Virus record (IMG/VR): IMGVR_UViG_3300033066_001283
Location: 1 to 64,000 of that record
Strand: one strand, 5' to 3'
Origin: a virus
Lineage: Duplodnaviria > Caudoviricetes
DNA: 64,000 bases
The notes under the pieces were generated by a model. It saw nothing but the letters and a program-made list of their open reading frames with translations, had not been told where the DNA came from and did no database searches. Positions 12,336-28,653 of this stretch are shown here, one piece after another. Position 1 is the stretch's first letter. Each line of letters begins with the position of its first letter. The translations under genes and the position numbers were made by a program.

Positions 12336-12364
12336 GGGCTAGGAGAATTCTCCTAGCCCTTTTT
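12336..12364 (+). terminator. intrinsic terminator between convergent units
   Basis: perfect 24-bp palindrome GGGCTAGGAGAATTCTCCTAGCCC (12336-12359) followed by TTTTT. Confidence 0.85.
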
Positions 12365-12389
12365 CTTGTCTAAAGGAACAACTTAACCT

Positions 12390-12599
12390 TTAGATTATAC
12401 CAGAGTCATCACTCTCTGGTTGTCCGTCCGTCACAGTAGAAGGATGTAAATTGAAGTTTTGAATTTTACTGATAAAGGATAATGTAAGTTGAATTAGATC
12501 GAGTAGTTCATTACTAGTTGAATTTATTTCAACTGTTTCTTCTACACCATTTCTAGTACAGTTTACAGTTAATCCTGAAGGGTTCTTATTAATAATCAT
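12390..12599 (-). CDS. hypothetical protein
   Basis: ORF overlapping the lysin stop. Confidence 0.5.
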   Translation of the reverse strand: MIINKNPSGLTVNCTRNGVEETVEINSTSNELLDLIQLTLSFISKIQNFNLHPSTVTDGQPESDDSGII

Positions 12600-13092
12600 T
12601 GAACCTTATAAAATGGATGTTAGAACCAGACTTCCAATATCTAATTTTCTTCAAGCCCAGCCACCCTTCTCGAGAACCATCTTCATTAGTATTTCCTTCC
12701 GAAGTTCTAAGCCAATAGATACCTAATGGTAGCTTCTTTACTTCGTTAATAGCAAAGATATGACCAGTAAGAGTTCTAGGATCTAGATAGTATCCTAAAT
12801 CTCCTCTTTTAGCTTCACTTGCATCAGTAAATAGTCTACCCTTTCTATTAAAGAAATCTCTCCAATTTCTAACTGCTGCTGCAGGAAATGGTAGATCAGT
12901 TTTCTTATAAAGTCCCGTAGCCATACACATAGCGTATAAAAATGCGCTACACCACGGATTTCCGGGGTCTACTCCAGCTAATTCGAGATATTTATCAACA
13001 TAAGGTCCACGATTACTACCTTTTGGAACCTCAACAGCTCTACCTTTTAGAATTTCGTCACTTACACGTAATAAAAATTGCTCAGATCGCAT
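12589..13092 (-). CDS. CHAP-domain cysteine peptidoglycan hydrolase (putative endolysin)
   Basis: E.PKGSNRGP.VD.YL, PWCSAF (catalytic Cys), GHI (catalytic His), EGNTN; AAGGAG SD inside the upstream gene. Confidence 0.8.
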   Translation of the reverse strand: MRSEQFLLRVSDEILKGRAVEVPKGSNRGPYVDKYLELAGVDPGNPWCSAFLYAMCMATGLYKKTDLPFPAAAVRNWRDFFNRKGRLFTDASEAKRGDLGYYLDPRTLTGHIFAINEVKKLPLGIYWLRTSEGNTNEDGSREGWLGLKKIRYWKSGSNIHFIRFNDY

Positions 13093-13849
13093 TAGATTGC
13101 TCCTTTTTCTTTTTCCACCATTCTAGTTTTGCTTTTCTCATTTTCTCTTTAGCTTCTTCTGTTTTAAGAATACCCTTTCTTTTTATAGACATTTTTAATT
13201 TAGCTTCATCAGAATGCTTACGACCTAACTGAGCTTTTCTATTTAGTTCTGCAAGTTCTTTACGTCTCTCATCAGAATAATTTGCAATGGTTGCAGCTCT
13301 TTTATCCTTTTGCTCTTGAGACGTAGGTTTGCCAAAATTAGGATTTAAAGGCCCAGATAATTTAAGTCTCATCTTTTCTTTGGCCTCCTCAGAGTGATGC
13401 CTACCGTAGAAAGGATTGTCTTTCCCATATTTCTTGTGGGTGGGAGGTTTATCAGCAACAAAGTTAGAATTTAAGTACAGATCTTTGTTACTTTCATCAA
13501 GTAACTTTTGCTCTATTAACAGAAGATTGTCACTATCTGGCACTTCACAAATTATAGAACAAGTAAAATCTCCTTCTCCATATTTATTCCAGGCACTTTG
13601 GAATAAAGGGGAATGATGAGCATTACGTCTTAATGCTTGAAAATGATCCATAAGTCTATTTCTTATTTGCCTAGATGATCCAATGTAATATCTATTCATA
13701 GAAGCACATTTAATAATATAACAGCCACTTAACTTATTAATTTCTCTGGGAATGGAGGTAGGTAAATACCAATCAGAATAGTCAGATTCTTTAGCTCTTC
13801 CAGATGTTATCTCATCTGATAATTTTAATAAAAATTGTTCTGATCTCAT
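13082..13849 (-). mobile_element. free-standing GIY-YIG homing endonuclease with NUMOD3 repeats, fused in frame to a copy of the lysin's first 21 codons
   Basis: GCYII...YYIGSS...R...H...L, KYGE..F, EQ, YLN; NPFYGRHHSEEAKEKMR and GRKHSDEAKLKMS repeats. Confidence 0.9.
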
Positions 13850-13856
13850 TTAACCT

Positions 13857-14504
13857 CTATAGTATTAAAGCTTCTTTATCTAAAATAGAGCTTTCTTTAA
13901 CAGGATGAAGTGGAATAATAGACTCAGCTTTAAAATATGCTTTTATTGAAGTTCCTATATCATTAAAAGTGTGTCCTCTACTGATACTTGTTAACTCTAA
14001 TCCTAAAATAGATTCCGTAGTAGCAAAGCCTTGTTTATTTTTCTGAATCATAGTCAAATTATGTTTCCCTTTAAATATCTCTGTTGGATCATTTAAATAC
14101 TGGGATAGAATGATGTATCCTGAAATAGACTTGGGATATATGTACTCATCATACATTATTTCTTCAACATTCCCTAATCTGGTATTATCGAGATAATACA
14201 TTTTATCAGCACCTGTAAAGCAGGCAGCACCTACTGATGAATGACTAGATAAGAAAGAAAGTCCAACTAAACCACCGCCCTCTTGCATACGAACTAATTG
14301 ACAATCAAATAAGTAAACAGTAGAATCTTCTTCTTGAACTTTGATTGTATGAAGCTTATTGCCGAAGTAATATTGATTATATAAAGTTTCTGGAAGAACT
14401 AAAGATCCAAGTATTATAGGCATACTTCCTTCTTTAGCAGATGATAGTGCATAAGTAATATCTATATTTCCACAATCAATTTCGTCTATATATATTTGTT
14501 TCAT
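13857..14504 (-). CDS. hypothetical protein with two-fold internal repeat, weakly tail-tube-like
   Basis: YIDEIDCGNI...ILGSLVL versus YLDNTRLGNV...ISGYIIL. Confidence 0.35.
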   Translation of the reverse strand: MKQIYIDEIDCGNIDITYALSSAKEGSMPIILGSLVLPETLYNQYYFGNKLHTIKVQEEDSTVYLFDCQLVRMQEGGGLVGLSFLSSHSSVGAACFTGADKMYYLDNTRLGNVEEIMYDEYIYPKSISGYIILSQYLNDPTEIFKGKHNLTMIQKNKQGFATTESILGLELTSISRGHTFNDIGTSIKAYFKAESIIPLHPVKESSILDKEALIL

Positions 14505-14505
14505 C

Positions 14506-15108
14506 TTACTTGAATAGGTTCATATCAGCTGCTGTAGCTGCCTGTATCTTCTGGCTCTGTTCAGAGACTGTATTGATCATCTGAAGGAAGAAGAATAGTA
14601 ATCTCTTCTCATTCATGGTTGGTAGAATAGGATAGCCCTTGGATCTTAAATTAGCTGTAAATCCAATACTCTGATCCCATGATTCTAGAAAGCTCTGCTG
14701 CTTCATATTGTAAGTGATCAATCTAACATATACTAAACCTGGGTCAATATCTTGATCTGGAACTGCTAAATTATCTGCTGTAGCAACTTTAACTGTAATT
14801 GTCTTACAGAAATCAGAGAAGTCTTTTTCAACCTGTTCTCTAGTTACACCTGACTGCTCAGGGAAATCTGCTGGTAGGGTAGCTTCATTAAGAGCTGTAT
14901 TAACTGCTGAATAGAGCTCATCAATAGTGATGATATCTTCCACTCTATCTTCAGTCATTGAAATCTGAATAACCTTAGGAAGAATAAACTCCTTAACCCA
15001 AACTACTTTATCCTCTTCACTCTTCTGTAGGACTGTCCAATTCTGGAGAGTTTGGTTGTTTCTTTCTTCTACGGCTTCTGCGCTGTTGTCTATTACTGTT
15101 TCGGGCAT
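14506..15108 (-). CDS. hypothetical acidic protein
   Basis: 200-aa ORF, AAGGA SD. Confidence 0.65.
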   Translation of the reverse strand: MPETVIDNSAEAVEERNNQTLQNWTVLQKSEEDKVVWVKEFILPKVIQISMTEDRVEDIITIDELYSAVNTALNEATLPADFPEQSGVTREQVEKDFSDFCKTITVKVATADNLAVPDQDIDPGLVYVRLITYNMKQQSFLESWDQSIGFTANLRSKGYPILPTMNEKRLLFFFLQMINTVSEQSQKIQAATAADMNLFK

Positions 15109-15220
15109 TTTCTTTTGTTTCCTTGATTTGATTTTTTATATCTTGATCGAGTTTCTCTATTGGAGTGTACTCGCCATTTACGTCTAAAATGTAGATCTGT
15201 TCATCCATTATAATTCCCAT
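15017..15220 (-). CDS. hypothetical protein
   Basis: fills the gap; 3' end overlaps the next gene. Confidence 0.4.
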   Translation of the reverse strand: MGIIMDEQIYILDVNGEYTPIEKLDQDIKNQIKETKENARNSNRQQRRSRRRKKQPNSPELDSPTEE

Positions 15221-15648
15221 CCTGCAACAGGTTTTGATTTAGTAAAGTCAGGAACCCATATTCCCTTCTTTATTTCTGCTACTTGATTATTAATTTCTAG
15301 CTTAAGAGGAAACTTAGACCCTGTTGAAGTAAGTGTACATTTAATTTCTCCTAAGGATTTAACTTCTTCTAGAAAACTGATAAATAGATTATGATCTGAA
15401 CCATTGAATTCGATTAGGTACTTTTGATCAGATTCATGATATTGACCTTGATACGCCCATGATTTGGGATCATTGGTGTAAAGCTCATTTCCATCTTCAT
15501 CTACCAGTTTAGAATGTATATCTATTCTTACTGAAGAAGACAATGGAATTTTACCAATAATATCTGTAACCTTATTCTTATCTCCCCATCCTCCATCTAG
15601 AAGAAGATGACCTGACCAATTATAGGGTTTAATATATGTGTTATTCAT
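15208..15648 (-). CDS. hypothetical protein
   Basis: ORF with GGAG SD. Confidence 0.55.
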   Translation of the reverse strand: MNNTYIKPYNWSGHLLLDGGWGDKNKVTDIIGKIPLSSSVRIDIHSKLVDEDGNELYTNDPKSWAYQGQYHESDQKYLIEFNGSDHNLFISFLEEVKSLGEIKCTLTSTGSKFPLKLEINNQVAEIKKGIWVPDFTKSKPVAGWEL

Positions 15649-15837
15649 TTAATCTCCAAGTATGAAATCTTTATTGATAAAGAAGATTCTTTTAGGATAT
15701 TCTTTCTCAGATACCCATCCTGTACTATTTCTAAACCCTGTTCTAATTTCATTAAACTGCCTATTATATTTATTGTACTCAATAACCTTAGGGTTTATAA
15801 TACCATATTTAGTTTCTTTCCAGTCTTTAAATTCCAT
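15649..15837 (-). CDS. hypothetical protein
   Basis: small coupled ORF. Confidence 0.45.
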   Translation of the reverse strand: MEFKDWKETKYGIINPKVIEYNKYNRQFNEIRTGFRNSTGWVSEKEYPKRIFFINKDFILGD

Positions 15838-16435
15838 TACGCCATGTGTATAAAAATCTGCAACATTTAAATGCAGTAAAGTGATAACTTGTAAGTTCTA
15901 TTGGATTCCATTCCCATTCTTCAGTTTCCTTATTCAAATGAAGAATACCAGCTAATTCAATCTCTTCAGGTTTGATAGAACAATCTTCAATCCTAGTAGC
16001 ATTCTTATAAGCTGCTAATTGAAGAGTATAAGAGTCTCTGATACTACGAGAACACTTGAAATCCACAAGAACTAGCTTTCCATTTTTAAATTTAGCTATT
16101 GAATCCAAGGTTCCTGCATACATTAAATCATCATGGTAGCATGCTTTCTCAAATGCTAGCCATTCATCTACGTTCTCATATGACCACTTTCTAAAGTTAT
16201 TGATTACCTTCTTAATAGAATGATCAGGCTTTATATCTAAGCCTGTTTCTATAAACTCAATAGTGTTGTGAACCAAGCTACCATAGGTGGCAGCATCATT
16301 CTTCTGTTTATTGGCCTCTGAGAGCCCCAGACGCCCATACCACTCTGCCAAGCCTGGTTTATCTAGTATATTAAGAATGGTGGTCACAGAAGGCACTTCA
16401 ATACCCTTTATTTCATATCGGCTAAATTTCTTCAT
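15827..16435 (-). CDS. PD-(D/E)XK (RecB-like) phage exonuclease
   Basis: PSVTTIL, GSLVH..IE, YAGTLD, VDFK, QLAAY. Confidence 0.85.
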   Translation of the reverse strand: MKKFSRYEIKGIEVPSVTTILNILDKPGLAEWYGRLGLSEANKQKNDAATYGSLVHNTIEFIETGLDIKPDHSIKKVINNFRKWSYENVDEWLAFEKACYHDDLMYAGTLDSIAKFKNGKLVLVDFKCSRSIRDSYTLQLAAYKNATRIEDCSIKPEEIELAGILHLNKETEEWEWNPIELTSYHFTAFKCCRFLYTWRNGI

Positions 16436-17347
16436 TTAGTATATTGGTAAGTACTTAGAGAGTATTTCTACAAAAGCATTAATGTTAAAGTTAATTCTCT
16501 TCTTAAGTACTTGGTATTCTTTACTGTAGAAATCATTATGTGCAGTTAATAATGCACAGTTATAAGCATCATCAGGAGAGATTAAGTTGATCTTATTCTT
16601 CCATAGCTTCTTCTTATTCACAGCTTTAATAAATGGATCTAGATTAAGTCCTAAGTTTTCTGCTTGATTGAATAGTTGTTCCGATTGAGCTATTCCTAAT
16701 TCTTCTGATAAAGAGATTACTAGTCCTCTGCGTTGGTTAATCTCATCTCTAGTTAAGAAATCTGAATTAGTATCTCTAATTACAACTGGGTGGATATAGT
16801 TAGATAGTTTATTTATAAAGCTATAATCAAAGTTACCCATCTGTCTACCATCTAATACCTTTGATCCAGTAGGAACTGTACAGAAAGTAGGAGAGAAGTC
16901 TTCATACTTAGCTAGTGTTTCCTGAATATAATTAATATTCGTATCATGAATACTCACTCCTAGTACAATATTAGGTGATAGTATTCTAGCATATTTCATT
17001 GCTGAAAGAGTCTTGAAGATTATTTCATTGGATGATAACTTAGGTGTAAAGAAATCTAAATGAAGAATATCAAATCCTGCTCTGCAATCATACTCTAAAG
17101 TTTTATAACTATCAGTAAGATTAGATTGTATATTACAGTTCTTTCTTGATACATAGACTTGTGCATCAGTATACTGAGCACGTTTAGTATGAATTAAATT
17201 CATAAAATCAAACGTACTTAGGAAGGTAGACTTCTCATAGTCTACCTGGCTTTTAGGGCATGAAATAATAATTGGTTTTTTTGTAATTTGTGAAAACTGG
17301 AATACAGCTTCTACTATCTCATATGAGATTGGTTCAACTTCTAACAT
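16436..17347 (-). CDS. GatZ/KbaZ (tagatose-bisphosphate aldolase subunit)-like TIM barrel, degenerate
   Basis: SQVD, D..AGFDILHLD, V.TGS.V...Q.G.F, NSDFL; expected DHxGP metal motif replaced by RKNCN. Confidence 0.5.
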   Translation of the reverse strand: MLEVEPISYEIVEAVFQFSQITKKPIIISCPKSQVDYEKSTFLSTFDFMNLIHTKRAQYTDAQVYVSRKNCNIQSNLTDSYKTLEYDCRAGFDILHLDFFTPKLSSNEIIFKTLSAMKYARILSPNIVLGVSIHDTNINYIQETLAKYEDFSPTFCTVPTGSKVLDGRQMGNFDYSFINKLSNYIHPVVIRDTNSDFLTRDEINQRRGLVISLSEELGIAQSEQLFNQAENLGLNLDPFIKAVNKKKLWKNKINLISPDDAYNCALLTAHNDFYSKEYQVLKKRINFNINAFVEILSKYLPIY

Positions 17348-17350
17348 AAT

Positions 17351-17986
17351 TTATGGAGGGGTTTCATTTTCCTTTCCTGGAAACCATTTCTTACAGTATT
17401 GTTTATAATTATTCAGATAGGAAATAGAATTTCTTTCTCCTTCTGAAAAGTGTAACATTTTAATATCAACGATTCTATTAGTGTATCCTAATTCCATAGA
17501 GGTATTACAAGCCCAGAGATCCGAGAAATGAATACCTGGAAGCTCATCAGGAAAAAGAATAGGCTTATCTGTAGCCATAAACAAAGAATCTAGATGAAAT
17601 GCTTCAGTGTCTACTGGACCAAACTTAGTATAATCATTAAGATCATGATGATAAATCTGACCACCAATATATGGAGAAGTCCACCAAGATCCATGATTAC
17701 CTATTATATTTCCTGCTACACCAATAAAGCCAGTATTAGGGTAATTTAAGAAAGCGTCTTGGACTCTAGATACAAAATCTAGATCTATTATTTCAACATC
17801 ACTATGTATATAACATCTAATATAGTCTTTATACTTATCTAGAACTGAATTATAAGCTTTAGAAATAGAGTCAAATTCTCTGATTCTAATAGAATCAAGA
17901 TTCAGATTATTAATAGATTTTTGAATATGTTTCTCATACTTTCCATCATTTCTATTATCCCAAGTAATTAAGATCAAAGGCTTCAT
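17351..17986 (-). CDS. GT2-like glycosyltransferase
   Basis: SISKAYN, YIHSDVEI, GFIGVAG, HFSDL. Confidence 0.75.
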   Translation of the reverse strand: MKPLILITWDNRNDGKYEKHIQKSINNLNLDSIRIREFDSISKAYNSVLDKYKDYIRCYIHSDVEIIDLDFVSRVQDAFLNYPNTGFIGVAGNIIGNHGSWWTSPYIGGQIYHHDLNDYTKFGPVDTEAFHLDSLFMATDKPILFPDELPGIHFSDLWACNTSMELGYTNRIVDIKMLHFSEGERNSISYLNNYKQYCKKWFPGKENETPP

Positions 17987-18579
17987 AGATGAGCTCCTAT
18001 AATAGGCTTAATACAATAATAATTAGATCCAAGCTCTACAGCTTTCTCACAAATTTTTCCATCTAAACCTGTATAGACTAGTATCTCTGAGGATAACTGA
18101 GTTAAAACTTTAATTGCTAATTCAGTTTTAATTACGAAGCTCATGAAATCAACATTACAGGTAACGGGTGTAGGATTTAAAACCTGAAATCTTTGTTCCC
18201 ATGCATAATTATGAATAATAGGCATTAAAAGTAATTCAGTTGGATTCTCCTTTAAACTATTTAAAACATCTTCAATAAAGATAGGCATATAAACGTTATC
18301 AGCATTAGTCCAATGAAGATACTCTGTTTGACAATTATTCATTCCTATTATTCTATTAGGATGCCCCCAATAGCCCTTATGTTCAGTTTCAATCCAAGTA
18401 AATCTAGAGTCATTTTGAATGTCTAATTTATCTGTTATATAGGGATCAGGATACACACCATCACAATATATTTGGCAATTCCATTCATCAGATTTATTTT
18501 GACACTGAAGAGAAGATACAAATCTTCTAAGTGTTGGTAAATCGTGCCCTGGCCAAGTAACAGCAATAATAGTTAACAT
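17983..18579 (-). CDS. GT2-family glycosyltransferase
   Basis: SLQCQ, YCDG, GYWGHPNR..G, TNADNVY. Confidence 0.75.
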   Translation of the reverse strand: MLTIIAVTWPGHDLPTLRRFVSSLQCQNKSDEWNCQIYCDGVYPDPYITDKLDIQNDSRFTWIETEHKGYWGHPNRIIGMNNCQTEYLHWTNADNVYMPIFIEDVLNSLKENPTELLLMPIIHNYAWEQRFQVLNPTPVTCNVDFMSFVIKTELAIKVLTQLSSEILVYTGLDGKICEKAVELGSNYYCIKPIIGAHL

Positions 18580-19799
18580 TAATAGACCTTCAATTCTGGT
18601 AATGGAACTACCAGTTTTGTTCCTCTGGATAAGAGATATTGTTCTCTTAAAGCCATCTGTCTAATAAAGTGCCAAGGAAGAACAAAGAGGTAATCTGGTT
18701 TCTTTTCTCTCATTTCTTCTTCAGAGATAATGGGTATACCAGTTCCAGCAGTAAACTTACCAACCTTAGGTCCATACCTTTCAGCAATAAATGGAAGAAG
18801 TTTAGGAGTGATACCAAAGTATTGAAGTAATGTATTGCCTTTAGTAGAACTGCCAAGACCAATTACTAGTTTACCTTCCTCCTTAGCCCTAGTAAGAAAC
18901 TCTAATGTTTGTTTCTTAGCTAATTCTATCCCTTCTGAGAACTTATTAAAATCAAGTGGATTAGCAGATTCATAATCTTGAATACTCTTAACTCTTATTT
19001 TACAGACTTCAACTTCATGCAAAGGCATAGTTGACATATCAGGATTAGGCATTGCATATACTCTAAAGCTACCACCATTAGTTGGATTTAATTGACAATC
19101 TATTATTGTAAAGCCACCTTGATCTAAGACTTGTTTAAGAGTATCAAGTGTATAATAGCATAAATGCTCTTCAGAGATATTACCTAACTCATTCTGAGTA
19201 AACATTAATGGTGTATAACTCATTTGAATTACTAATAAACCATCATCAGTTATACTTTCTTTGACATCCTGAATAAACTTGATTGGGTTATCTAGATCAT
19301 AGAACATAGCTATGATAGTGATAACTTTAGCTTTCTTATTAAACTGAGAGAAGACTTCTTTACTGAAGTAATCATTTATCAGCGTCATTTTATGTTTATC
19401 ATAAAGATCTGAGTTCTTTGCAATATCACAAGGATCGATTCCAACTCTAATTAAATTATTATCCCAGTTCGTAAGTAGTTCACCACTATTAGAAGCTATG
19501 TCTAGTACCAAATCCCCAGGAGAAACTGAAACATAATTATGGCATGAATCCACTATATCTTTCAGTTCTTTCTTCATACTCTCATTAATAGATGAGTTAT
19601 AGAAATATTTCTGATACATTTTATTAGGTGGATAAGAATTAAATAGTTGAAGTAATCCTGTAGGTCCTACTCCTAACTTTAACTCAACTAGATCGCCAGT
19701 GTTAATATTTTCTTTATCAACAAAGCCATTAACACGTTGTGTTCCTAAACTAAATACTTCTTTAAGTGGTTGATTAGTAATTCTGCAATTCAACTCCAA
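18579..19799 (-). CDS. SAM-dependent NDP-hexose C-methyltransferase
   Basis: N-terminal CRI...LG.Q, VLDIASNSG, GIDP, IAMFYDL, EHLCYY, GSSTKGNTLLQ, PDYLFVLPWHF. Confidence 0.88.
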   Translation of the reverse strand: MELNCRITNQPLKEVFSLGTQRVNGFVDKENINTGDLVELKLGVGPTGLLQLFNSYPPNKMYQKYFYNSSINESMKKELKDIVDSCHNYVSVSPGDLVLDIASNSGELLTNWDNNLIRVGIDPCDIAKNSDLYDKHKMTLINDYFSKEVFSQFNKKAKVITIIAMFYDLDNPIKFIQDVKESITDDGLLVIQMSYTPLMFTQNELGNISEEHLCYYTLDTLKQVLDQGGFTIIDCQLNPTNGGSFRVYAMPNPDMSTMPLHEVEVCKIRVKSIQDYESANPLDFNKFSEGIELAKKQTLEFLTRAKEEGKLVIGLGSSTKGNTLLQYFGITPKLLPFIAERYGPKVGKFTAGTGIPIISEEEMREKKPDYLFVLPWHFIRQMALREQYLLSRGTKLVVPLPELKVY

Positions 19800-20515
19800 T
19801 ATTCTCCTAATGTTTCTCTAAGCTCATAACTATAGCATTCTACCGGATATTTTGGCCAATTCATTTTAATTCTAGGAAGGGGTATAAATAGATTATCTCT
19901 AATTTCAAAATCTACTAACATAGCTTCATCTCTACATGGAGCATTATCTACTAAATAGTTAAGAGGATCAGAAATAAACTTATTAACTCTAGAATCATGT
20001 AAAGCATAGTAGTATTTACCTATAGCTGTTTCAGCTCTGTCTATTAGATTATAGTCTACAGGACCAGTATAGGTACAATGAGGAGCAGAGAACAATTTGA
20101 GTAGATTTTCTCTCTTCCCTATAAATAGATGATCTTTAGGATGAAAGGGAAATGTTTTATACATTCCTAAAGTAAAAATAAGATTTGGATTATTCCGATC
20201 AAAAAATTCTTTAATTAATGGAAGATCTAAAATGATTTGATCAGTTCTAGCTTTAATACAAAATTCGGTTTCAGTTCTCTTTATACCCTCTAAAGATGAC
20301 ACCAACTGTTTATTTCTATTACCCACTCCATAAATAGGAGGAGGAGTATTAAAAATCATAGTACAGTTATTTAAAGGATCAGATTGCTCCCAAGTAGATA
20401 CATAAATATTGTTAACCCAATCACATTTTAAGTATTCATCTATAACTTGATTTGTCCAAGAGTATATTGGACCCTGTAAAACAATATCAAATTTCATACT
20501 TATCATTTGGAACAC
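19790..20515 (-). CDS. WavE-like LPS synthesis protein
   Basis: IVLQGPI, VSTWE, NRNKQLVSS.EG, IKARTDQ, FHPKDHLF.G. Confidence 0.7.
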   Translation of the reverse strand: MFQMISMKFDIVLQGPIYSWTNQVIDEYLKCDWVNNIYVSTWEQSDPLNNCTMIFNTPPPIYGVGNRNKQLVSSLEGIKRTETEFCIKARTDQIILDLPLIKEFFDRNNPNLIFTLGMYKTFPFHPKDHLFIGKRENLLKLFSAPHCTYTGPVDYNLIDRAETAIGKYYYALHDSRVNKFISDPLNYLVDNAPCRDEAMLVDFEIRDNLFIPLPRIKMNWPKYPVECYSYELRETLGEYWS

Positions 20516-20813: not shown

Positions 20814-21948
20814 TTTTCATTAATCTATTTTGATGCCTACCACCTTCAAATTTGTTAGATAAAATAAGTTTAAGGTAAGAAGATAACATTTCCAGTGTAG
20901 CATTATAAGAGGCTATAGAGAAGAAATTAGGTAGGTTATGTTTAATTGCGTATTCAGCAGAATATTCATTATAAATAAGTGCGGATCTAATTCCATCAAT
21001 CTTATTAGCAGTAATATTTATACCTTGACCACTACGGCAGAATCCAAAAGCATAATCTATCATTCCATCATTTATACCTAATGCTGTTTGATAAACATAA
21101 TCACTATAGTCGCTATCTTCAGATGTATAACAACCAAAATCTGTATATTCAAGACCATTTTGAGATAACAACCTCTTAAATATCTCTTTAGCCTGAAATC
21201 CAGAATGATCAGAGCATAGGCCAATTGGCTTATTACCAATCTTAGGAAGTATTTGATCTTTAAAGAAAGTATATTCTTTAGGGGTTCCAAAGAGATATAA
21301 ACTATCAACAGATCGTGCTTTTATTTTCTTACCTTGATCTATAAGAATATTATAGAGTGGAGCAATATAATATTCATTATTAATAAGGTATTTAGAATCA
21401 GAAAGCATTATTCTAGAAGCTTGAATAAAGTCTAAGGTACTTTTAAAGCAATAAATACCTACAGAAGCATCATTACTAATAACTTTCTTTTCAGTAGTCA
21501 TAACTGCGTATCCTTTCTCATCAGTTTTAACATAACTATACAATGGACTATTAGCTTTAAATGTAAGAATTAAACCATCATCTGGAACTGATAAATCAAA
21601 TATTGGAGAGAACATCACATCCAATGTATTTATAATTAAAGGTCTATCTACTTCAAGATCAGGTAACGCTTCCATACAAGTAAATACAGCACCATGTTGA
21701 GGTCTAGATAAAACAATAACCTTTGATCCAGGATATTTATTTTTGAGGATTGTATCTAGCTGATAATTAGATGCAGTATCATCTCTCATTAAGAACACAA
21801 TATCACAGTTAGAATAGTCTATAGAAGACATAGACCAGTCTAATAAAGTCTTATTATCTGCCATAATAAGTTGCTTGGGTATAGTGTACCCCGCATCGAA
21901 AAATCTTTGAGCCTTACCAGCAATAGGAATTAAGAGGAGTGGTCGCAT
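20782..21948 (-). CDS. sugar nucleotidyltransferase fused to an RpiB/LacAB-type sugar-phosphate isomerase
   Basis: N-terminal PIAGKAQRF...PKQLI, EKK.ISN.A..GIY, NEYYIAPLYN, GTPKE; C-terminal SDHSGF..K, DY.DY, CRSGQG..I.ANK, HN, FEGGRH. Confidence 0.88.
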   Translation of the reverse strand: MRPLLLIPIAGKAQRFFDAGYTIPKQLIMADNKTLLDWSMSSIDYSNCDIVFLMRDDTASNYQLDTILKNKYPGSKVIVLSRPQHGAVFTCMEALPDLEVDRPLIINTLDVMFSPIFDLSVPDDGLILTFKANSPLYSYVKTDEKGYAVMTTEKKVISNDASVGIYCFKSTLDFIQASRIMLSDSKYLINNEYYIAPLYNILIDQGKKIKARSVDSLYLFGTPKEYTFFKDQILPKIGNKPIGLCSDHSGFQAKEIFKRLLSQNGLEYTDFGCYTSEDSDYSDYVYQTALGINDGMIDYAFGFCRSGQGINITANKIDGIRSALIYNEYSAEYAIKHNLPNFFSIASYNATLEMLSSYLKLILSNKFEGGRHQNRLMKIEEYGNKKPI

Positions 21949-22640
21949 CGTTCTAGTAATCTAAGTTTAGTTTTTTCATGTACTAATTTTGCTAATTCCA
22001 GAAAATCTATTTCTGTGTCTAAATTGTACGTTTTAATTCCTTTAATCATATTAGCAGCAAATATATCTCCAGCTCCTACCACATCAGTTAGATCTTCAGT
22101 AGGAAAGTTATATTCTCTAATTCTATTTAGGGTACCAATAACAATAGATCTATTAGAGTGTATAAAGAAAGCTTTTTTAGCTTTAATATCAGAAAGAAAA
22201 ACATCATTAGAGAGAAAAACATAGTCTAATAATGGTCCTTCCTTATAATTAATAAAGTCTCCAGAAGTAGTTTTATATATAGTCAAATCCATTTCATTAC
22301 CTGGACAAGTATCAACATATGATATATGAGCCCAATCATTCTTAGGAGTTAAAACTATATTAGGACTTTCTGGAATATTATGTACACTCATCTTAGTGCT
22401 ATTTTGTATAACAGTAGCAGTAGCAGTTCTATCGGAAATAGTCAAAATAGGAGTACAATAATCTTTAATTTCTTTAGAGATTAGATCTCCAAATACATCA
22501 TTTCCAACAACAGAGAAGAGATGATTGTTTTTATCATTTAATTCTCTAGCCACATTAGCAATACCACCAGACTGATATCTAAACTTATTAGGCTCTGTGT
22601 ATATATGGTCCCAAAATAAATTGCCAATTAAATCAAACAT
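21930..22640 (-). CDS. PfkB-family carbohydrate kinase
   Basis: GGIANVA, VGND..G, DVVGAGDIFAA. Confidence 0.82.
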   Translation of the reverse strand: MFDLIGNLFWDHIYTEPNKFRYQSGGIANVARELNDKNNHLFSVVGNDVFGDLISKEIKDYCTPILTISDRTATATVIQNSTKMSVHNIPESPNIVLTPKNDWAHISYVDTCPGNEMDLTIYKTTSGDFINYKEGPLLDYVFLSNDVFLSDIKAKKAFFIHSNRSIVIGTLNRIREYNFPTEDLTDVVGAGDIFAANMIKGIKTYNLDTEIDFLELAKLVHEKTKLRLLERCDHSS

Positions 22641-23548
22641 TATAAATAATCAAATGGGTAGTTATCTGGTAAATCGTATAAACTATACAATTCATCAATA
22701 GCTCCCTTACCCCCATTAGTTTTTAATCTAGTAGCATTAAGAGATAAAGATGCATCAGCAGGACAGTAACTCTTAACTAAATTACATGCTGATAAGTCAT
22801 AATAATCATCACCTACAAATATAAATTGTGAATAAGGTAGTTTGTATTTTTTAGCTAGTTCATTAATAATTAAGTTCTTATCTAATACACCATTTATAGG
22901 TTCAACTATTTTATAGTCCAAATTCCTAGATTTAGCCATTCCCACATTCCATTCATCCCCAGTAAGAAGAAAAACTTTGACACCTGCAGCTTTAAATCTT
23001 TTAATTGCAGTAAAATCTCTATCACAAAAGGATTTAGCTAACTTCTTATGATCTTTATCATAGAGTTTAGTTCCATCTGTTAAAACCCCATCCACATCCA
23101 AAAGTAAGACTCTAAATGGAAGACCTTTAGTATGTTTGGATACATAATCAGTGCAGATACCATAAATATCCTCAGGTACATATTTTTCATATTCTATATG
23201 AGTATAGATAGTATTTTTGATAGGGCCAGCAAGTTGGTGAGCCCAAGACACAAAAGTATTTTTCACAGGAACTATTCTTTCATTAGTCTGTTTAAATACT
23301 TGAGCTCCTAATAATTCTAATTGTATAAGTGCCTGATCATCTTTTGCATGGCACCAAATTCTCGAATCAATAAAGAAGTTTCGATCAACCTCATACAATG
23401 GTTCATCATGGCCAAGTAAGTACCCATTTTTATACCAAACATCTATCTCAACATCATAACCTAAGTTTAAAGCTTGAACAATATACTCAGGATGATTCTC
23501 TTTTTCAGAGGGTCCATTTATATTGCCTCTATGAGCTATATATTTCAT
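22640..23548 (-). CDS. GDPD/PLC-like phosphodiesterase fused to a KdsC-type HAD phosphatase
   Basis: IAHRGN, EN.PEY, DVEIDVW, LGHD, WCHAK, GICTD; LDVDGVLTDG, LTG, VGDDYYD, GGKGA. Confidence 0.85.
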   Translation of the reverse strand: MKYIAHRGNINGPSEKENHPEYIVQALNLGYDVEIDVWYKNGYLLGHDEPLYEVDRNFFIDSRIWCHAKDDQALIQLELLGAQVFKQTNERIVPVKNTFVSWAHQLAGPIKNTIYTHIEYEKYVPEDIYGICTDYVSKHTKGLPFRVLLLDVDGVLTDGTKLYDKDHKKLAKSFCDRDFTAIKRFKAAGVKVFLLTGDEWNVGMAKSRNLDYKIVEPINGVLDKNLIINELAKKYKLPYSQFIFVGDDYYDLSACNLVKSYCPADASLSLNATRLKTNGGKGAIDELYSLYDLPDNYPFDYL

Positions 23549-24227
23549 CTATGCTTACCTGGAATATACCATTCATATGTAATATGATTATACCATTGGT
23601 TACCCTTAATATACCCAAATTGTGACAACCATTTTTCAATCTTATCTACCTCATCTGGACCATATTGATCATTACCAACAGGAGAACTTTCTACAAAAAG
23701 AACTGGAAGATCACGTTCTATTGTTTTTTTAGAGCCTTTTAATGCTTCTAATTCAGGGCCTTCCATATCAAAAATAAGCATGGTAACATCTTTAAGGTCT
23801 TTAGAATCTAGAGATTTTAAAATAGTATCTTTACCTTTTTATTACCGCTAAAAGAAGTACATCCCGGCTCATGATTATGATACTGAACCATTGTAGATTT
23901 TACATCAGAACTCCATAATCCTTCATTATAACATTTAATAGTTGGATACTTTTCAGTATTTTTAACTAATAAAGGATAGGAAATAGGATGAGGTTCAAAA
24001 GCATGTATCTCTTTATGCTCTAAATAATTAGCACAAAATAATGGATGATTACCACAGTGTGCACCAGCATCAACAATAGTTTTATGTGTTGGGTATGTAT
24101 TACGTATATATTCTAGAAGTTCAAATTCATAAAAAGTTCCAGTACTAGAAATATGTTCAGCTATAGAAGATCCATCAGGAAATTCTAACTCTATATTTTT
24201 TTCTAGGTATTCGATATTAACAATCAT
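23545..24227 (-). pseudogene. FkbM-family methyltransferase split by a -1 frameshift (ORFs 23817..24227 and 23545..23781)
   Basis: VDAGAHCGNH and HAFEP in the first ORF; the -1 frame continues KGKDTILKSLDSKDLKDVTMLIFDMEGPELEALKG...PVLFVE; one extra A in the A5 run (23836-23840) restores the frame. Confidence 0.75.
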
Positions 24228-24475
24228 ATTTTTATATCTTTTTCTATATTAAGAATCATTTTATCGATAGCATTCTTCAAAGCTGATCTTTGAGAGTTAA
24301 GTTTTGCCGCTTTTGTTCCCGCCTTTGCTATTTTTACAAGTTCATTCATGTCTAGATTCTCAATATCTTCGGGAGCTGATAGAGTTATATCTACTAACAT
24401 AAAGATCTTAAGATTTACAATAGAGAGCATATCTACTAACTCTCCTATAGAATAATGGGTGTAATCATATACCAT
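24224..24475 (-). CDS. small helical protein (DUF4254-like)
   Basis: SIGELVD.LSI..LKIF...N.QRS.LK..ID. Confidence 0.5.
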   Translation of the reverse strand: MVYDYTHYSIGELVDMLSIVNLKIFMLVDITLSAPEDIENLDMNELVKIAKAGTKAAKLNSQRSALKNAIDKMILNIEKDIKI

Positions 24476-25262
24476 ACTGTAATAATTGTAGCAATTTATC
24501 TTGAACTAAATTAGAATCGCCTCTAATGCAATAATCTCTACCATACCAGCTTAATCCAAAATCGAAATGATTTAGAGATGTAGACTGTTCATAGTAAATA
24601 ACCTGTGGATATTTACAAATATAAGCTAGACAGGAAATTGCACTATAAGTTGTTAGTAGAACCTTATCTTTAAGAGTTTCTACCATATCAGTAAAACTTG
24701 TGGATAAAATAAACTCAGGATTATATTTTAGAAGGCATTGATATTTAGTTTCATCTTCTTCAAACAATGAGATATATAACTTAGTATTAAGATTGGACAT
24801 AACTATATCTGCACACCTTATAACTTCTTCATTAGCATACGGTCTGGAAGATTGAGCCTCAAGTAGTATTCCAGTAGGATTTTTGTACTCAACTTGATCG
24901 ATACAATTCTGGCTTAGCAAATTTATAGAATCTATTGGAACATCTGCTAAAGAAGAGAGTGTAAGATTATTATCTGGAAAGGTTTTATAGCCAAGATGGT
25001 ATACATTTGTCCAATTAGAAGTAAAATACTGTTCTTGATTGAAGTGATAAGGTTGTCCTCCACAGAAGTACTCAGTAACTCCATCTATGCAAAATGCGGT
25101 ATTTACCCATGATTGATTCTGTAAGAGTGGAAGAAGCTTGTAAGAAGCATTATCTAAGCAAAGATCTACTTTACAGTTATTTTGTAAAGAGTATTGGTAT
25201 GCAATAGGAAGTTTGCATAGATTATCTCCTAGTTTTCCTGGAAGAGTAAAAATAGTGTTCAT
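24465..25262 (-). CDS. GT9-like (heptosyltransferase-like) glycosyltransferase
   Basis: PGKLGD.L..LP, L..QSWV. Confidence 0.5.
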   Translation of the reverse strand: MNTIFTLPGKLGDNLCKLPIAYQYSLQNNCKVDLCLDNASYKLLPLLQNQSWVNTAFCIDGVTEYFCGGQPYHFNQEQYFTSNWTNVYHLGYKTFPDNNLTLSSLADVPIDSINLLSQNCIDQVEYKNPTGILLEAQSSRPYANEEVIRCADIVMSNLNTKLYISLFEEDETKYQCLLKYNPEFILSTSFTDMVETLKDKVLLTTYSAISCLAYICKYPQVIYYEQSTSLNHFDFGLSWYGRDYCIRGDSNLVQDKLLQLLQYGI

Positions 25263-26170
25263 ATATTAATAATCTCTAGTATTTGATTGTAAAATACTTT
25301 TGGAGACCATTGATGCTGTAAGTCAAGCACGCTTTGATTTCCTAGAATTAATGCATCCTTTATAGACATAGAAGGGTAACAAGGAAGAAGAGAGTTAACA
25401 TGTTTAAATTGCTCAGAAGGAGTGAGAAGCAGAGGAGCTGAAGATGAAATACAATAGTCTACTGCACTACTTAATCCACGATTTGTATTATGATCATAAA
25501 ATAAACAGTTAATACTATTAGTACCTAGCCAATTAACGCACTCAGAATCGCTCATTCTATGAGTAGTAATATTCAATTGTGTTCCAGGCTTTGTTACTTT
25601 AGACCTGCAGTTATTAATAACTGCGTTTAGTGTTTCTGCACCGTCATTAAAATATGCTTGTGTGATATGGAGATTTATAATAGCTTCTTCAAATTCTGAA
25701 CAGACAGCTTCTACAAGTCTAGGAAAGCCTTTATTATGAAAAGCAAATCCAAACGAGCCTATCGTAGGTATAGAAGGAGGAGTATAGCTACCAAAAGGTA
25801 AAAGAGGTCTGATAGTTTTAACCCATCTAGAATCCTTACCAGTTAAGTCTAATGCATTATTAGCTACTAGCCATAAATCAAAGAAAGGATCAGCAACTCC
25901 ATTAACTGATTCCTGAGTTATTTCATGAAGAAGTCCAATAAATTTTCCTGACTTTTCTAGTGAATGTACCCATGGCATAAGACCAGGATAGTAATTAAAA
26001 ATTACTATATCTGAGGAGGAAATATATGCTTGTGCTTCTTCTTTAGAGTTTGCTTCTAGATATGAAAAGATTTCAGGATTAAAAGAATGTAGAATTTCAA
26101 ACATTCTTTTACCGTGTGCATGCACACCACAGACTTCAGAATGGTTATGATTAACTATTAGAACTTTCAT
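25259..26170 (-). CDS. GT-B fold (GT4-like) glycosyltransferase
   Basis: CGVH, IGSFGF...KGF..LV, LSSAVDY. Confidence 0.65.
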   Translation of the reverse strand: MKVLIVNHNHSEVCGVHAHGKRMFEILHSFNPEIFSYLEANSKEEAQAYISSSDIVIFNYYPGLMPWVHSLEKSGKFIGLLHEITQESVNGVADPFFDLWLVANNALDLTGKDSRWVKTIRPLLPFGSYTPPSIPTIGSFGFAFHNKGFPRLVEAVCSEFEEAIINLHITQAYFNDGAETLNAVINNCRSKVTKPGTQLNITTHRMSDSECVNWLGTNSINCLFYDHNTNRGLSSAVDYCISSSAPLLLTPSEQFKHVNSLLPCYPSMSIKDALILGNQSVLDLQHQWSPKVFYNQILEIINI

Positions 26171-27128
26171 TCTTTAGATCATACTCCACCATAATTTTAA
26201 TTAACTGATTAATGTTTGTTTCTGGTTTCCAGCCTAACACTTTCTCAGCCTTAGAATAGTCTGCTCTTAGTTCATGATGATCAAGAGGTCTAATAAATTG
26301 TGGATCTACCTCAACATATTTCTCCCAATCTAGGCCTACTTCTGAGAATGCTATATTAAGAAAATCTCTAAGTTTAGTACACACTCCTGTACCAATTACA
26401 AATTCATCAGGTTTATCATGCTGAAGAATTAAATGCATTGCCTTAACGTAATCCTTAGCATACCCCCAATCTCTACCAGTATCAAGATTTCCTAGAGATA
26501 ACTTATCTTGTAATCCTAGTTTAATTCTAGCAGCCGCTTTAGTTATTTTACGTGTTACAAAAGTATCAGGTCTACGTGGGCTCTCGTGGTTGAATAAAAT
26601 TCCTTGAGCTACAAACATATTAAAAGCATCTCTATGATGTTTACATTGATAATAGGCTGCAATTTTAGCAACTGAGTATGTTGATGTGGGAGCAAAAGGA
26701 GTATCTTCACCTTGAGGCGCAGGAGCCAAACCAAATATTTCAGAAGTAGTTGCTTGATAAATCTTAGATTCAGGGCAAACTAATCTGGCTGCCTCTAAAA
26801 TTCTAAGAAGTCCTATTGCATTAATATCCATAGTTTCAATTGGCATATCATAGCTAGTTTGAACATGACTTTGGGCTGCAAGACAATAGATTTCTGTAGG
26901 TTTTATCTGAGAAAATAACCCAATTAATTGTTCAGTTGAAGCAAGACTACCAGTATGAAGATGAAGCTTATCTTTAATATGTTCAATATTTTTAAGATTA
27001 TTACCGCCACTAACCTTTCTAACTAAACCATGAACTTCATATCCTAGATCTAATAAATACTCAGCAAGATATGATCCATCTTGTCCAGTGACACCAGTAA
27101 TAAATGCTTTCTTCTGTTTATCTACCAT
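26151..27128 (-). CDS. gmd: GDP-mannose 4,6-dehydratase
   Basis: ITGVTGQDGSYLAE, LAAQSHV, YQATTSE, YSVAK, LFNHESPRR..FVTRKIT, LGNLD..RDWG. Confidence 0.96.
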   Translation of the reverse strand: MVDKQKKAFITGVTGQDGSYLAEYLLDLGYEVHGLVRKVSGGNNLKNIEHIKDKLHLHTGSLASTEQLIGLFSQIKPTEIYCLAAQSHVQTSYDMPIETMDINAIGLLRILEAARLVCPESKIYQATTSEIFGLAPAPQGEDTPFAPTSTYSVAKIAAYYQCKHHRDAFNMFVAQGILFNHESPRRPDTFVTRKITKAAARIKLGLQDKLSLGNLDTGRDWGYAKDYVKAMHLILQHDKPDEFVIGTGVCTKLRDFLNIAFSEVGLDWEKYVEVDPQFIRPLDHHELRADYSKAEKVLGWKPETNINQLIKIMVEYDLKNESSNS

Positions 27129-27268
27129 TCATTATTTCCTCTTTTCTCTGCTAGCAAAGCTCCCATTCCACCAAGCATAGCATCTGGGTCTTTGAGAAGC
27201 CCTAAAGAACCATTAACTATATGCTGTACGATAGATTTACCAACTAAAGCATGCTTAGAGTTAATCAT
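27122..27268 (-). pseudogene. 48-codon orphan duplicate of the C-terminus of glycosyltransferase 27985..28653
   Basis: MINSKHALVGKSIVQHIVNGSLGLLKDPDAMLGGMGALLAEKRGNNEW*; 27/34 aa identical to the GT segment NSRHALVGKSVVQHLTNGSLGLVKDPDQMLAGMG; not in the ORF track. Confidence 0.85.
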
Positions 27269-27998
27269 ATTTAGGTGGAGTGTACACTCCACTCCTTTTC
27301 AAAGAATTTACAATTGTTTTAGATACAACATTATATCTTTCAGCAAGTTCAAGAGGAGAGTACCCCTGCAAAAATAATTCTTTTATCACAGAGTCTTCGG
27401 ACTTTATTTTAGATACTTTTCCCGATTTAGATCTAGATAATCTAAGATTATATCCACCAGTTCTATTTAAAGAATTTCTGATTGATGTGTAACTCACTTT
27501 GAATTTTTCACATAAAGCTTTAATTTGTACTCCTGTATTGTATAAACAACGAACTATATCATCATCTTCAGCCGTAAGTTTACTTCTAGAAAGCTTTTGA
27601 TCCAGTGTCATGGGAATTCCTTTATTACTTGATGGAATTCCTAGCTTTGCTCTACTGCACTTTTTCCTATGTGAGTCAGAATTTTTACACCCTTGTCTAG
27701 ATGCTCTAGCCTCAGTACAAATATTCATAGATAAGATGTCATTTTTATACTCTTGTAATAATTCATACTCAATCTGAATTACTTCTGATTCGTTGCAGTA
27801 CTTAAGTATTTCAAAAACGAAAGACTCTTCCCCATATTTATTATAGCATCTTTGCATATGGAAATTGAAATGTCTATTACATCTAAGACTGCGTAAGTGC
27901 TCATGAAATCTGTTACTAATATTTCTAGATTGGCCAATATAGAACCTATCATTTTTAGTACATGTAATTTTGTACACTCCACAATTATTTTGTATCAT
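27261..27998 (-). mobile_element. free-standing GIY-YIG homing endonuclease (NUMOD3-like plus tandem HTH-like repeats)
   Basis: GVYKI...FYIGQS..I..R...H...L, KYGEESF.F; two LY/LF..G.....L...F/Y.VS...I.NSL.R repeats. Confidence 0.9.
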
Positions 27999-28653
27999 AT
28001 TCCTCTCTTACAGTTCTTAATACTTCACCCATTCCCGCTAACATTTGATCTGGATCTTTTACTAATCCTAAGGACCCATTAGTTAGATGTTGAACAACTG
28101 ATTTTCCAACTAGAGCGTGTCTAGAGTTAACACGCTTAAGACAATCTTGCATATGATCATCCGCACACCAGAACAAGAAGCGTTCATCTAATGGTAGTAT
28201 TTTATTTAAACTCTCTCTTTTAAATACTAAATTCCAGCCTGTAAATAAACTTCCTGTTCCGTACCCTTCATGGACCTGATTAGAATCAAGATTAACATGT
28301 TGAAACCAACCTGGATTATATGGTGAAGCAGAATCTAAGTTATGTTCCTGCATTGCCTTGTATATTTCTGTAAACCAATGCTTGTGGAATATTACATCAT
28401 TATTACTGATAATCAAATATGGAGTATCTGAGTACTTAAAGCCAATATTTAAGAAGCGATTATAATTAAACTCTTCATTGGGGATAATGATCTTGGCTGG
28501 ATACTTATGTGAAGTATGGGGATTAGTTTCTACTACTATTGGATTAAACTTGAATTCTGTTTCTGAAGCAAGCAATGTATTAATAGCTTGCATAGTCAAG
28601 TTATAATAATGTTCATTAGCAGTATTAGCTAGAAATATGCAATCTACTTTCAT
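27985..28653 (-). CDS. GT2-family glycosyltransferase (target of the GIY-YIG insertion)
   Basis: IVVETN, FNYNRFLNIG, ISNNDVIF, LDERFLFWCADD. Confidence 0.85.
   Translation of the reverse strand: MKVDCIFLANTANEHYYNLTMQAINTLLASETEFKFNPIVVETNPHTSHKYPAKIIIPNEEFNYNRFLNIGFKYSDTPYLIISNNDVIFHKHWFTEIYKAMQEHNLDSASPYNPGWFQHVNLDSNQVHEGYGTGSLFTGWNLVFKRESLNKILPLDERFLFWCADDHMQDCLKRVNSRHALVGKSVVQHLTNGSLGLVKDPDQMLAGMGEVLRTVREEYDTK

Follow-up and report, generated by a model that had tools for sequence, protein, structure and literature searches.

Two GIY-YIG endonuclease genes of an uncultured freshwater phage, each lying between diverged copies of a host-gene end

Intronless endonuclease ORFs lying within coding genes have been described in fungal mitochondria, where such mobile ORFs (mORFs) form gene hybrids in atp6 of Allomyces macrogynus and in atp6, atp9, cox2 and nad3 of Glomus sp. 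(PMC3630166). The ORF, which in atp9 encodes a GIY-YIG enzyme, is preceded by an in-frame copy of the C-terminal end of the gene and followed by a displaced copy; the copies share 64-81% DNA identity with the protein well conserved, and the usual reading is the horizontal import of a gene end together with the endonuclease (PMC3630166). In T-even phages, the free-standing Seg and Mob homing endonucleases are associated with "intronless homing" (PMC2988022; for SegB, PMC2330249), and the T-even review contains no mention of duplicated gene ends (PMC2988022). In a preprint, mobA of phage T4 and the gene 60 bypass element are seen as one mobile cassette (bioRxiv 10.1101/2022.08.31.505936). Furthermore, Barth et al. 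(2023) placed nuclease genes at the boundaries of genetic exchange between phages (PMC10448857), a paper whose text was not found to describe duplicated gene ends on either side of an endonuclease gene. Literature searches for phage examples of such duplicates returned only mitochondrial papers.

Here, an uncultured freshwater phage is described in which two GIY-YIG genes each lie inside a working gene that is kept whole by a diverged spare gene end. Both loci fall within the window, that is, the whole stretch of 64,000 nucleotides analysed.

Layout of the two interrupted genes

The features of cassette 1, at the 5' end of a lysin gene, are the following:
13857..14504, minus strand: upstream neighbour gene P0001, 215 aa, of no family; the poorly conserved flank of the cassette
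13787..13849, minus strand: copy 1, corresponding to codons 1-21 of the lysin 5' end, from which endonuclease 1 now takes its start codon and leader
13082..13849, minus strand: endonuclease ORF 1, 255 aa, GIY-YIG and NUMOD3 by Pfam, fused in frame to copy 1
13030..13092, minus strand: copy 2 of that lysin end, with which the working lysin gene begins
12589..13092, minus strand: CHAP-family lysin, 167 aa, a chimera (PF05257 in 7 of 10 aligned family members)

Those of cassette 2, at the 3' end of a glycosyltransferase (GT) gene, are:
27985..28653, minus strand: GT2 glycosyltransferase by Pfam, 222 aa, its last 14 nt overlapping the start of endonuclease 2
28130-27985, minus strand: copy A, about the last 45-48 GT codons, in frame with the gene body
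27261..27998, minus strand: endonuclease ORF 2, 245 aa, GIY-YIG by Pfam
27122..27268, minus strand: copy B, the displaced GT 3' end, an open mini-ORF of 48 codons that matches copy A and is also called by the JGI gene caller (L009 6731-6877)
26151..27128, minus strand: GDP-mannose 4,6-dehydratase gene (gmd; Pfam E 1e-109), the less conserved flank of the cassette

Every gene of the two cassettes thus lies on the minus strand, and the original prediction, that each GIY-YIG gene sits between two diverged copies of one end of the interrupted gene (the 5' end for the lysin, the 3' end for the glycosyltransferase), was borne out. It had also taken all the junctions for overlapping stop/start pairs, which is correct for five of the six, with overlaps of 7-14 nt; the sixth is a 7-nt spacer between the stop of the upstream gene at 13857 and the start of endonuclease 1 at 13849. 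The stop/start chain is kept through both cassettes, as had been proposed, with no coding-strand terminator inside either of them and no excess of promoter-like sites. When the 150-kb genome was compared with itself by tblastx, local gene-end duplicates adjoining an endonuclease gene were found nowhere but at these two loci, and in both the GIY-YIG gene occupies the space between the copies. The third GIY-YIG gene of the genome (121355-122365) has no duplicate in its flanks.

The GIY-YIG domain (PF01541) scores 47.5 bits in enzyme 1 (E 2e-12) and 40.1 bits in enzyme 2 (E 4.5e-10) against a cut-off of 22.6, and was also found by the genome scan. Enzyme 1 carries the DNA-binding module NUMOD3 as well (44.4 bits against a cut-off of 20.4; E 2e-11), and the C-terminal half of enzyme 2 gives weak matches, below the Pfam cut-offs, to HTH_23, HTH_7 and similar models at residues 139-236. 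Both are predicted to be free-standing homing endonucleases of the Seg/I-TevI-like kind and would presumably cleave DNA. Close relatives of either were not found in searches of 5.8 and 1.8 billion proteins and of IMG/VR; the best ones are 47-53% identical and lie in unrelated gene contexts (P0050 and P0046 among them). Since these searches gave no second occurrence of either endonuclease, spread is not evidenced.

In cassette 1, a Shine-Dalgarno motif, AGAGG (13858-13854), stands directly upstream of copy 1, and this motif together with the first nine codons matches the uninterrupted allele of relative L006 at 36 of 37 nt, within a 50-nt island of 92% identity. Homologues of enzyme 1 align, from their own residues 2-5, with its residue ~38-41 onward, and no ATG, GTG or TTG occurs between its codons 2 and 50; as read from the sequence, enzyme 1 lacks a separate initiation codon and therefore relies on the old lysin start. 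The lysin, in turn, has its Shine-Dalgarno motif (AAGGAG) within the 3' end of endonuclease 1, whose stop falls within lysin codons 3-4. The original prediction of residues kept in spite of synonymous codon change was upheld for both pairs of copies: copies 1 and 2 (BLASTP E 3e-7) agree at 16 of 21 residues, nine of these 16 codons being synonymously different. A gapped BLASTP extension of copy 1 past codon 21 was rejected, the DNA there matching at chance level (12/36). Copy 2 shares 19 of 21 amino acids with L006 and only 45 of 63 nt (pS 0.83), whereas copy 1 shares 50 of 63 nt and 16 of 21 amino acids, being closer in DNA and further in protein. All the residues of copy 1 are known from natural lysin alleles; K9, L10 and K20, for example, are found in P0011. 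Within the lysin, codons 22-60 are 51% identical in nucleotides to L006, the nearest relative, and 66% identical to the distant L015, identity to L006 reaching 84% beyond 12918. The lysin family profile matched none of the PDB sequences, and no lysin relatives were found in a scan of IMG/VR. On the upstream side, P0001 has been replaced between relatives: only its C-terminal half matches a protein of L006 (119 aa; 50% amino acid identity) and its region shows no DNA similarity to L006 by blastn, the next genes being 90% identical.

In cassette 2, copies A and B (BLASTP E 9e-21) agree at 27 of 36 aligned residues, 13 of these with synonymous codon changes, and are about 71% identical over 104 nt of DNA. 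The ATG of copy B overlaps the stop of endonuclease 2 and its own stop overlaps the start of gmd (ATGGTAG). The GT body is 91-96% identical to that of relative L007, copy A about 85% and copy B 75%; towards L008 both copies are about 68-70% identical (copy B 68%). The GT tail departs from L007 exactly at the overlap with the start of endonuclease 2. The stretch of 3-5 codons ("LHL", also present in L008) by which copy B might reach into the 3' end of that gene is too short for a decision. A scan of JGI metagenomes with copy B (48 aa) gave no relative, and its allele type was found in no intact gene. Among relatives, 3-4 alleles of the GT 3' third, about 70% apart, are found on a backbone of 89-94% identity, and gmd, which likewise occurs as several alleles, is 79-88% identical among three relatives against 89-94% for the GT body. 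Copy B together with gmd is 63-85% identical to L007, rising to 92-97% beyond 26170.

Relatives without the endonucleases

Endonuclease-free relatives bear directly on whether the duplicate ends preceded the endonucleases. In L007 and L008 the GT gene is single-copy and uninterrupted and runs directly into gmd, endonuclease 2 being absent, and in L006 and L015-L021 the lysin gene is likewise single-copy and uninterrupted. Thus the search for such relatives returned single-copy alleles at L006, L007 and L008, and none of the screened lysin or GT relatives carries both gene-end copies. These three empty alleles belong to relatives 84-95% identical in the flanks, not to near-identical strains. 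Among 88 GT-family loci, a partial C-terminal duplicate occurs in one, the phage's own; the 87 others contain neither a GIY-YIG gene nor an extra partial C-terminal copy, L061 having two full-length paralogues. No GIY-YIG gene was found among 85 distant metagenomic and viral GT loci screened, nor was a second lysin or GT locus with the duplicated-end layout. [quoted passage not shown]

Within the population, the layout proved fixed throughout the samples containing the phage (three or more studies), and no near-identical endonuclease-free variant was seen there. In four riverine runs, contigs crossed the junctions of copy 1 with endonuclease 1 and of the GT gene with endonuclease 2, the junctions being the same; among these contigs, which are short and shallow, none bridged an empty site. 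The SNPs that distinguish population variants show no clustering at the cassettes. A blastn search of phage GenBank records with both cassettes gave nothing beyond a conserved gmd stretch, and almost none of the large proteins of the phage were recognised by PHROGs.

Origin of the cassettes

The two cassettes probably represent independent insertions of free-standing GIY-YIG homing-endonuclease genes, each of which would have arrived with a diverged allele of the gene end it interrupted, so that the host gene stays whole without splicing. As to the route, we infer cleavage, the repair pathway, the resistance of the resident copies to cleavage and present-day mobility. In a mixed infection, the enzyme would cut a naive allele close to the point that became the junction (lysin codon ~21 in one case, GT codon ~174 in the other), and the broken end on the side of the gene body would invade the diverged donor by homology, copying the donor gene end and the endonuclease gene. 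On the other side, the neighbour gene would be too diverged for homologous repair and would be joined by short or micro-homology, leaving the resident gene end stranded; in both cassettes the flank on the side of the stranded copy is the poorly conserved one (P0001 and gmd). Diverged tracts adjoin both endonuclease genes (lysin codons 22-60; copy B and gmd), which, like the 3-4 alleles of the GT 3' third, counts in favour of this reading. In the 5' case, the lysin start left stranded would, along with its ribosome-binding site, become the translation start of endonuclease 1, whose 3' end would supply a new ribosome-binding site for the lysin. In the 3' case, the stranded GT tail would stay as a mini-ORF bridging the stop of endonuclease 2 to the start of gmd. 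From then on, the gene body and the stranded copy would provide homology arms that both lie in one gene, and the cassette could home as one piece regardless of its neighbours.

The alternative that survives best, which we regard as unlikely, is that the duplicates are scars of patchwork (homology-facilitated illegitimate) recombination between diverged phages, the endonuclease being a passenger whose nuclease activity was uninvolved and the cassettes being immobile now. These genomes are indeed mosaic, with the several alleles of the GT 3' third and gmd and the replacement of P0001 already described; the diverged tracts beside both endonuclease genes may reflect general phage mosaicism. Neither endonuclease was found elsewhere and the layout is fixed, which speaks for this alternative and against the preferred reading. 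Also against that reading is the ambiguous polarity of the copies, as judged from their identities to L006 and L007. Against such scars stand the restriction of the duplicates to exactly two places in 150 kb, both gaps being filled by a GIY-YIG gene, and the strong catalytic-domain matches kept in both enzymes. Moreover, in T-even phages double-strand breaks made by such enzymes are known to set off local gene conversion (PMC2988022).

That the gene ends were first duplicated in place, as tandem partial paralogues, with the endonuclease inserted later and the unused copy left to drift, is very improbable and largely refuted by the empty alleles. The copies are in fact tandem and in the same orientation, but no GT relative (87 other loci) or lysin relative has both copies minus the endonuclease. 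Drift also predicts pN close to pS, whereas pS was 0.77 and pN 0.26 between copies 1 and 2, and 0.70 and 0.17 between copies A and B, estimates that are noisy as the duplicated tracts are short (63 nt in cassette 1, ~110-145 nt in cassette 2). With pN/pS at about 0.25-0.33, synonymous sites are near saturation, while the adjoining GT body differs from L007 by a pS of only 0.32, and the differences of copy 1 are residues of natural alleles. Near-saturated synonymous sites with kept amino acids argue that the copies diverged as working alleles and not by in-place decay; to judge from their codons, they are old, separately selected alleles.

Splicing out of the endonuclease regions as group I introns, or their excision as inteins, with an incidental second copy, is hardly credible, even though endonuclease 1 is fused in frame to its upstream "exon" as are many mitochondrial intron ORFs, since cmscan of 12000-29000 at E<=1 gave no Rfam intron family (three chance-level matches, none an intron), the insertions are entirely filled by the endonuclease ORFs, endonuclease 2 and the GT gene are read in different frames, endonuclease 1 is closed by a stop and shows no domains besides GIY-YIG and NUMOD3, and there would be no need for a second, complete gene end equipped with a Shine-Dalgarno motif and an ATG. 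The original prediction that there is no room for an intron therefore stands, and there is none for an intein either.

Implications and comparison with known systems

If the cassettes work as proposed, selfish endonucleases would have, next to introns and inteins, a third way of residing in phage genes that are essential or useful, namely the replacement of the end of the gene. Some chimeric phage genes and "orphan" mini-ORFs would thereby be explained, and annotators may find that an N-terminal extension of an endonuclease, or a tiny ORF behind one, is a stranded gene end. Hypervariable gene termini could then be footprints of endonuclease arms races. Whether gene-end duplication is a general, overlooked route by which phage homing endonucleases spread is a more tentative matter, and we lean towards doubting it. 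Were it general, the spare gene end would put both homology arms in one conserved gene, so that the cassette would not depend on gene order and could pass from one mosaic phage to another without neighbour-gene homology; the 5' form would let an endonuclease take the translation start of its host gene while giving it a new one, and hypervariable gene ends, the 3-4 alleles at the GT 3' third among them, would be accounted for by the process occurring again and again. The locus is a good test case, with both mirror forms in one genome and natural empty alleles in L006, L007 and L008.

In our reading, both cassettes are probable phage counterparts of the fungal mitochondrial mobile-ORF gene hybrids. 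Both show the features of the mORF type, an intronless ORF within a coding gene flanked by two diverged end copies; neither recurrence nor movement as a unit was found for either cassette. The original prediction had pointed to 3'-end replacement in fungal mitochondria, and rightly so, since the layout of cassette 2 is exactly that of the mORFs (PMC3630166). The differences are that the host is a phage and not an organelle, that the displaced copy B is an open, translationally coupled mini-ORF, and that the in-frame copy A, not copy B, is nearer to the closest relative L007, the reverse of the fungal pattern. Cassette 1 is a mirror form, with 5'-end replacement and capture of the host start, which is absent from PMC3630166.

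With the endonuclease genes described by Barth et al., the two loci share a position at the borders of diverged exchanged tracts. With the Seg and Mob genes of T-even phages they share promoter-less GIY-YIG cassettes within operons, presence that is polymorphic between related phages, co-conversion of flanking markers and signals of the downstream gene embedded in the endonuclease ORF. The T4 Seg and Mob genes, however, either occupy the space between genes or divide a gene so that two functional polypeptides result (mobE in nrdA of Aeh1, mobA in gene 60). The T4 mobA endonuclease is reportedly accompanied by an adjacent piece of host gene that keeps the invaded gene working, as here, but that companion is said to be a 50-nt translational bypass insert, and differs from the replacement gene end of the present cassettes.

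Duplicated gene ends around the endonucleases

The 64-kb window opens an IMG/VR virus record of 150,263 bp, whose completeness is about 80%. The cassette region is a single long operon on the minus strand, with glycan-synthesis genes and others, among them:

12589-13092, minus strand: lysin, 167 aa (CHAP, via family members)
13082-13849, minus strand: GIY-YIG endonuclease 1 (Pfam GIY-YIG and NUMOD3 domain)
26151-27128, minus strand: GDP-mannose 4,6-dehydratase, gmd (Pfam)
27261-27998, minus strand: GIY-YIG endonuclease 2 (Pfam GIY-YIG; HTH matches weak)
27985-28653, minus strand: GT2 glycosyltransferase, GT (Pfam)

The lysin gene itself gave zero Pfam matches; CHAP was matched by 7 of 10 aligned members of its family, in whose alignment Cys/His positions are conserved. 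Of ten proteins compared with PHROGs (the lysin and nine large ones), nine have no family there. The lineage is poorly charted. It was found in riverine metagenomes, and an activated-sludge run also contained a small part of the sampled words. Elsewhere in the window, a 703-aa gene (8043-10154), whose near-identical copy on another contig, L012, matches the polysaccharide deacetylase family, is bracketed by two paralogues, each about 240 aa long (7363-8046 and 10157-10861; about 40-65% identical by tblastx), with no endonuclease. A perfect, GC-rich palindromic hairpin of 10 bp (12336-12359), with a T-run 3' on the plus strand only, lies between the minus-strand operon and the plus-strand gene 10897-12282; its 25 nt were found again, with a 100% match, in L006, a relative of the phage.

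The gene-end duplications around both GIY-YIG genes, as originally noted, were confirmed. In cassette 1, lysin codons 1-21 are repeated as the first 21 codons of endonuclease 1 (copies 2 and 1, respectively), with 16 of 21 residues identical (BLASTP E 3e-7). In cassette 2, the last ~45 GT codons (copy A) are repeated immediately after endonuclease 2 (copy B), both copies sharing the starting point TTAACTCT, with about 71% DNA identity and 27 of 36 residues identical (E 9e-21). The further claim, that the protein had been kept despite synonymous codon change, also held, since in cassette 1 seven codons are identical and nine of the 16 conserved ones differ synonymously. Nei-Gojobori estimates between copies were pS 0.77 and pN 0.26 for cassette 1, and pS 0.70 and pN 0.17 for cassette 2, against only pS 0.32 and pN 0.007 for the GT body and its nearest relative; by these values, the copies split long ago and evolved under protein-level selection. 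They are alleles of different lineages, rather than a recent in-place duplicate gone to decay. The 'odd' residues of copy 1 (K9, L10 and K20) are those of other natural lysins.

Such a pattern is what might be expected of a break in a naive allele repaired from a diverged donor, each side in a different way: the gene-body side would be mended by homologous invasion of the donor and the other, where homology is lacking, by a short-homology or illegitimate join. The main rival, that the endonuclease is a passenger at an ordinary mosaic joint, is improbable, given that duplicates adjoining an endonuclease gene occur at two places only in 150 kb, each pair exactly bracketing an intact GIY-YIG gene. 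Moreover, a third GIY-YIG gene (336 aa; genome 121355-122365, beyond the window), situated between genes upstream of a 1069-aa gene, shows no duplicate in its flanks; it is an ordinary intergenic free-standing endonuclease, against which the two cassettes can be set within one genome.

Uninterrupted alleles and diverged tracts

The endonuclease-free alleles to be sought in related phages were found for both genes. The GT of L007, a Logan contig, has 222 aa (97% protein identity) and runs directly into gmd with an overlap of 4 nt, as that of L008 likewise runs directly into gmd. The L006 lysin (167 aa, 75% identical) overlaps the stop of its own upstream gene, and an uninterrupted lysin is also present in five more distant lineages. 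Since these relatives are uninterrupted, both insertions are derived; they are also precise, with 757 bp added behind lysin codon 21 and 866 bp behind GT codon ~174. In addition, a metagenome scan contributed 80 further GT-family loci; among the 88 examined overall, a partial second match to the GT C-terminus was found at the studied phage's own locus only, and GIY-YIG-like sequence in none of the 85 distant GT loci screened. These empty alleles, together with the pN/pS values between copies, contradict a duplication made in place that later drifted.

Diverged tracts lie beside both endonuclease genes. Compared with L006, identity is 90% as far as 14501, and DNA identity is absent over the gene upstream of endonuclease 1 (13857-14504), where 50% protein identity is kept in the C-terminal half only; a 50-nt island at copy 1 follows (92%), then 45-70% over the opening ~175 nt of the lysin, and 84% from 12918 onward. 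Over lysin codons 22-60 the distant lysin locus L015 is the nearer of the two, with 66% nt identity as against 51% for L006. The upstream gene (215 aa) corresponds to two ORFs in L006 (4295-5004; 115 and 119 aa), and a weak match within the protein (E 0.38) hints that the domain of its C-terminal half could recur, in diverged form, in its N-terminal half.

With L007 as the reference, identity is 91-96% over the GT body, about 85% over copy A, 63-77% over copy B and 74-87% over gmd, returning to 92-97% past 26170. For the GT 3' third (window 27985-28220, L007:5436-5669 and L008:1216-1455) there are three or four alleles (A, close to that of L007; B; and L008), with about 70% identity between them, on a backbone which is 89-94% identical over the first 145 codons in the same phages; at codons 146-175 the L008 allele falls to 53-55%. 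This marks a hot spot of recombination or escape where the endonuclease sits. In both cassettes the poorly conserved neighbour lies on the side of the stranded copy (copy 1 or copy B), the working copy being continuous with the well-conserved gene body. Separately, L007 carries a 347-aa gene (L007:1450-2493) with a weak HNH_3 match, the matching gene-order place in the studied phage holding a 144-aa gene (L009:2835-3269, about window 30730-31164); here, too, an endonuclease may be present in one of the two phages and absent from the other.

As regards polarity, in-frame copy A is closer to L007 than displaced copy B, whose allele type was absent from any intact gene in a metagenome scan with copy B, and for cassette 1 DNA similarity and protein similarity to L006 favour opposite copies. 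This conflict would plausibly be explained by a donor in which the entire duplicated cassette was already present, with co-conversion of the flanks.

Reading of the cassettes within the operon

Homologues of endonuclease 1 begin aligning, at their own residues 2-5, around its residue 38-41; since codons 2-50 contain no start codon, it is translated from the old lysin start, whose Shine-Dalgarno and nine first codons (copy 1) share 36 of 37 nt with L006. The lysin now starts at copy 2, with AAGGAG upstream in the last codons of endonuclease 1. In cassette 2, there are 14 nt of overlap between the GT stop and the endonuclease start, the ATG of the copy-B ORF (48 codons) overlaps the stop of the endonuclease, and the stop of this ORF overlaps the gmd start as ATGGTAG, the arrangement that would be expected of a native GT end.

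The predicted splice-free layout was borne out, and an intron or intein is without any support: cmscan against all of Rfam (E<=1) returned no intron, the insertions are filled by the endonuclease ORFs, GT and endonuclease 2 are read in different frames, and endonuclease 1 stops within lysin codons 3-4. Furthermore, no coding-strand terminator was found inside either cassette and promoter-like sites were at chance level; both cassettes are promoter-less within the operon.

Distribution and comparison with known systems

No close relative of either endonuclease was found in 5.8 + 1.8 billion proteins or IMG/VR, the nearest relatives of both lying in unrelated gene contexts. Contigs from three further samples (one JGI metagenome and two Logan runs) were 99.5-100% identical with the same layout, and the junctions were unchanged wherever short riverine contigs reached them. 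Current homing, as well as cleavage and resistance of the resident copies, is putative.

In the open-access literature searched, endonucleases flanked by duplicated gene ends were found in mitochondria only; such duplicates are mentioned neither in a review of T4 mobile elements (PMC2988022) nor in a survey from 2023 that deals with phage nucleases at the boundaries of exchange (PMC10448857). A promoter-less place within an operon, like that of the cassettes, is described in the review (PMC2988022) for several of the seg and mob genes of T4. In fungal mitochondria, mobile endonuclease ORFs make a 'gene hybrid' in atp6, atp9, cox2 and nad3, composed of an inserted C-terminus, the endonuclease ORF and the displaced native C-terminus, with 64-81% DNA identity between the duplicates, which are nearly identical in protein (PMC3630166). 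The layout of cassette 2 is that of the fungal hybrid (PMC3630166), and cassette 1 is its mirror image, in which the endonuclease has additionally captured the translation start of the host gene. In result, the phage cassettes equal the fungal 'gene hybrid'. They are a clean example from a phage: a single genome contains both mirror forms, and natural empty alleles are available.
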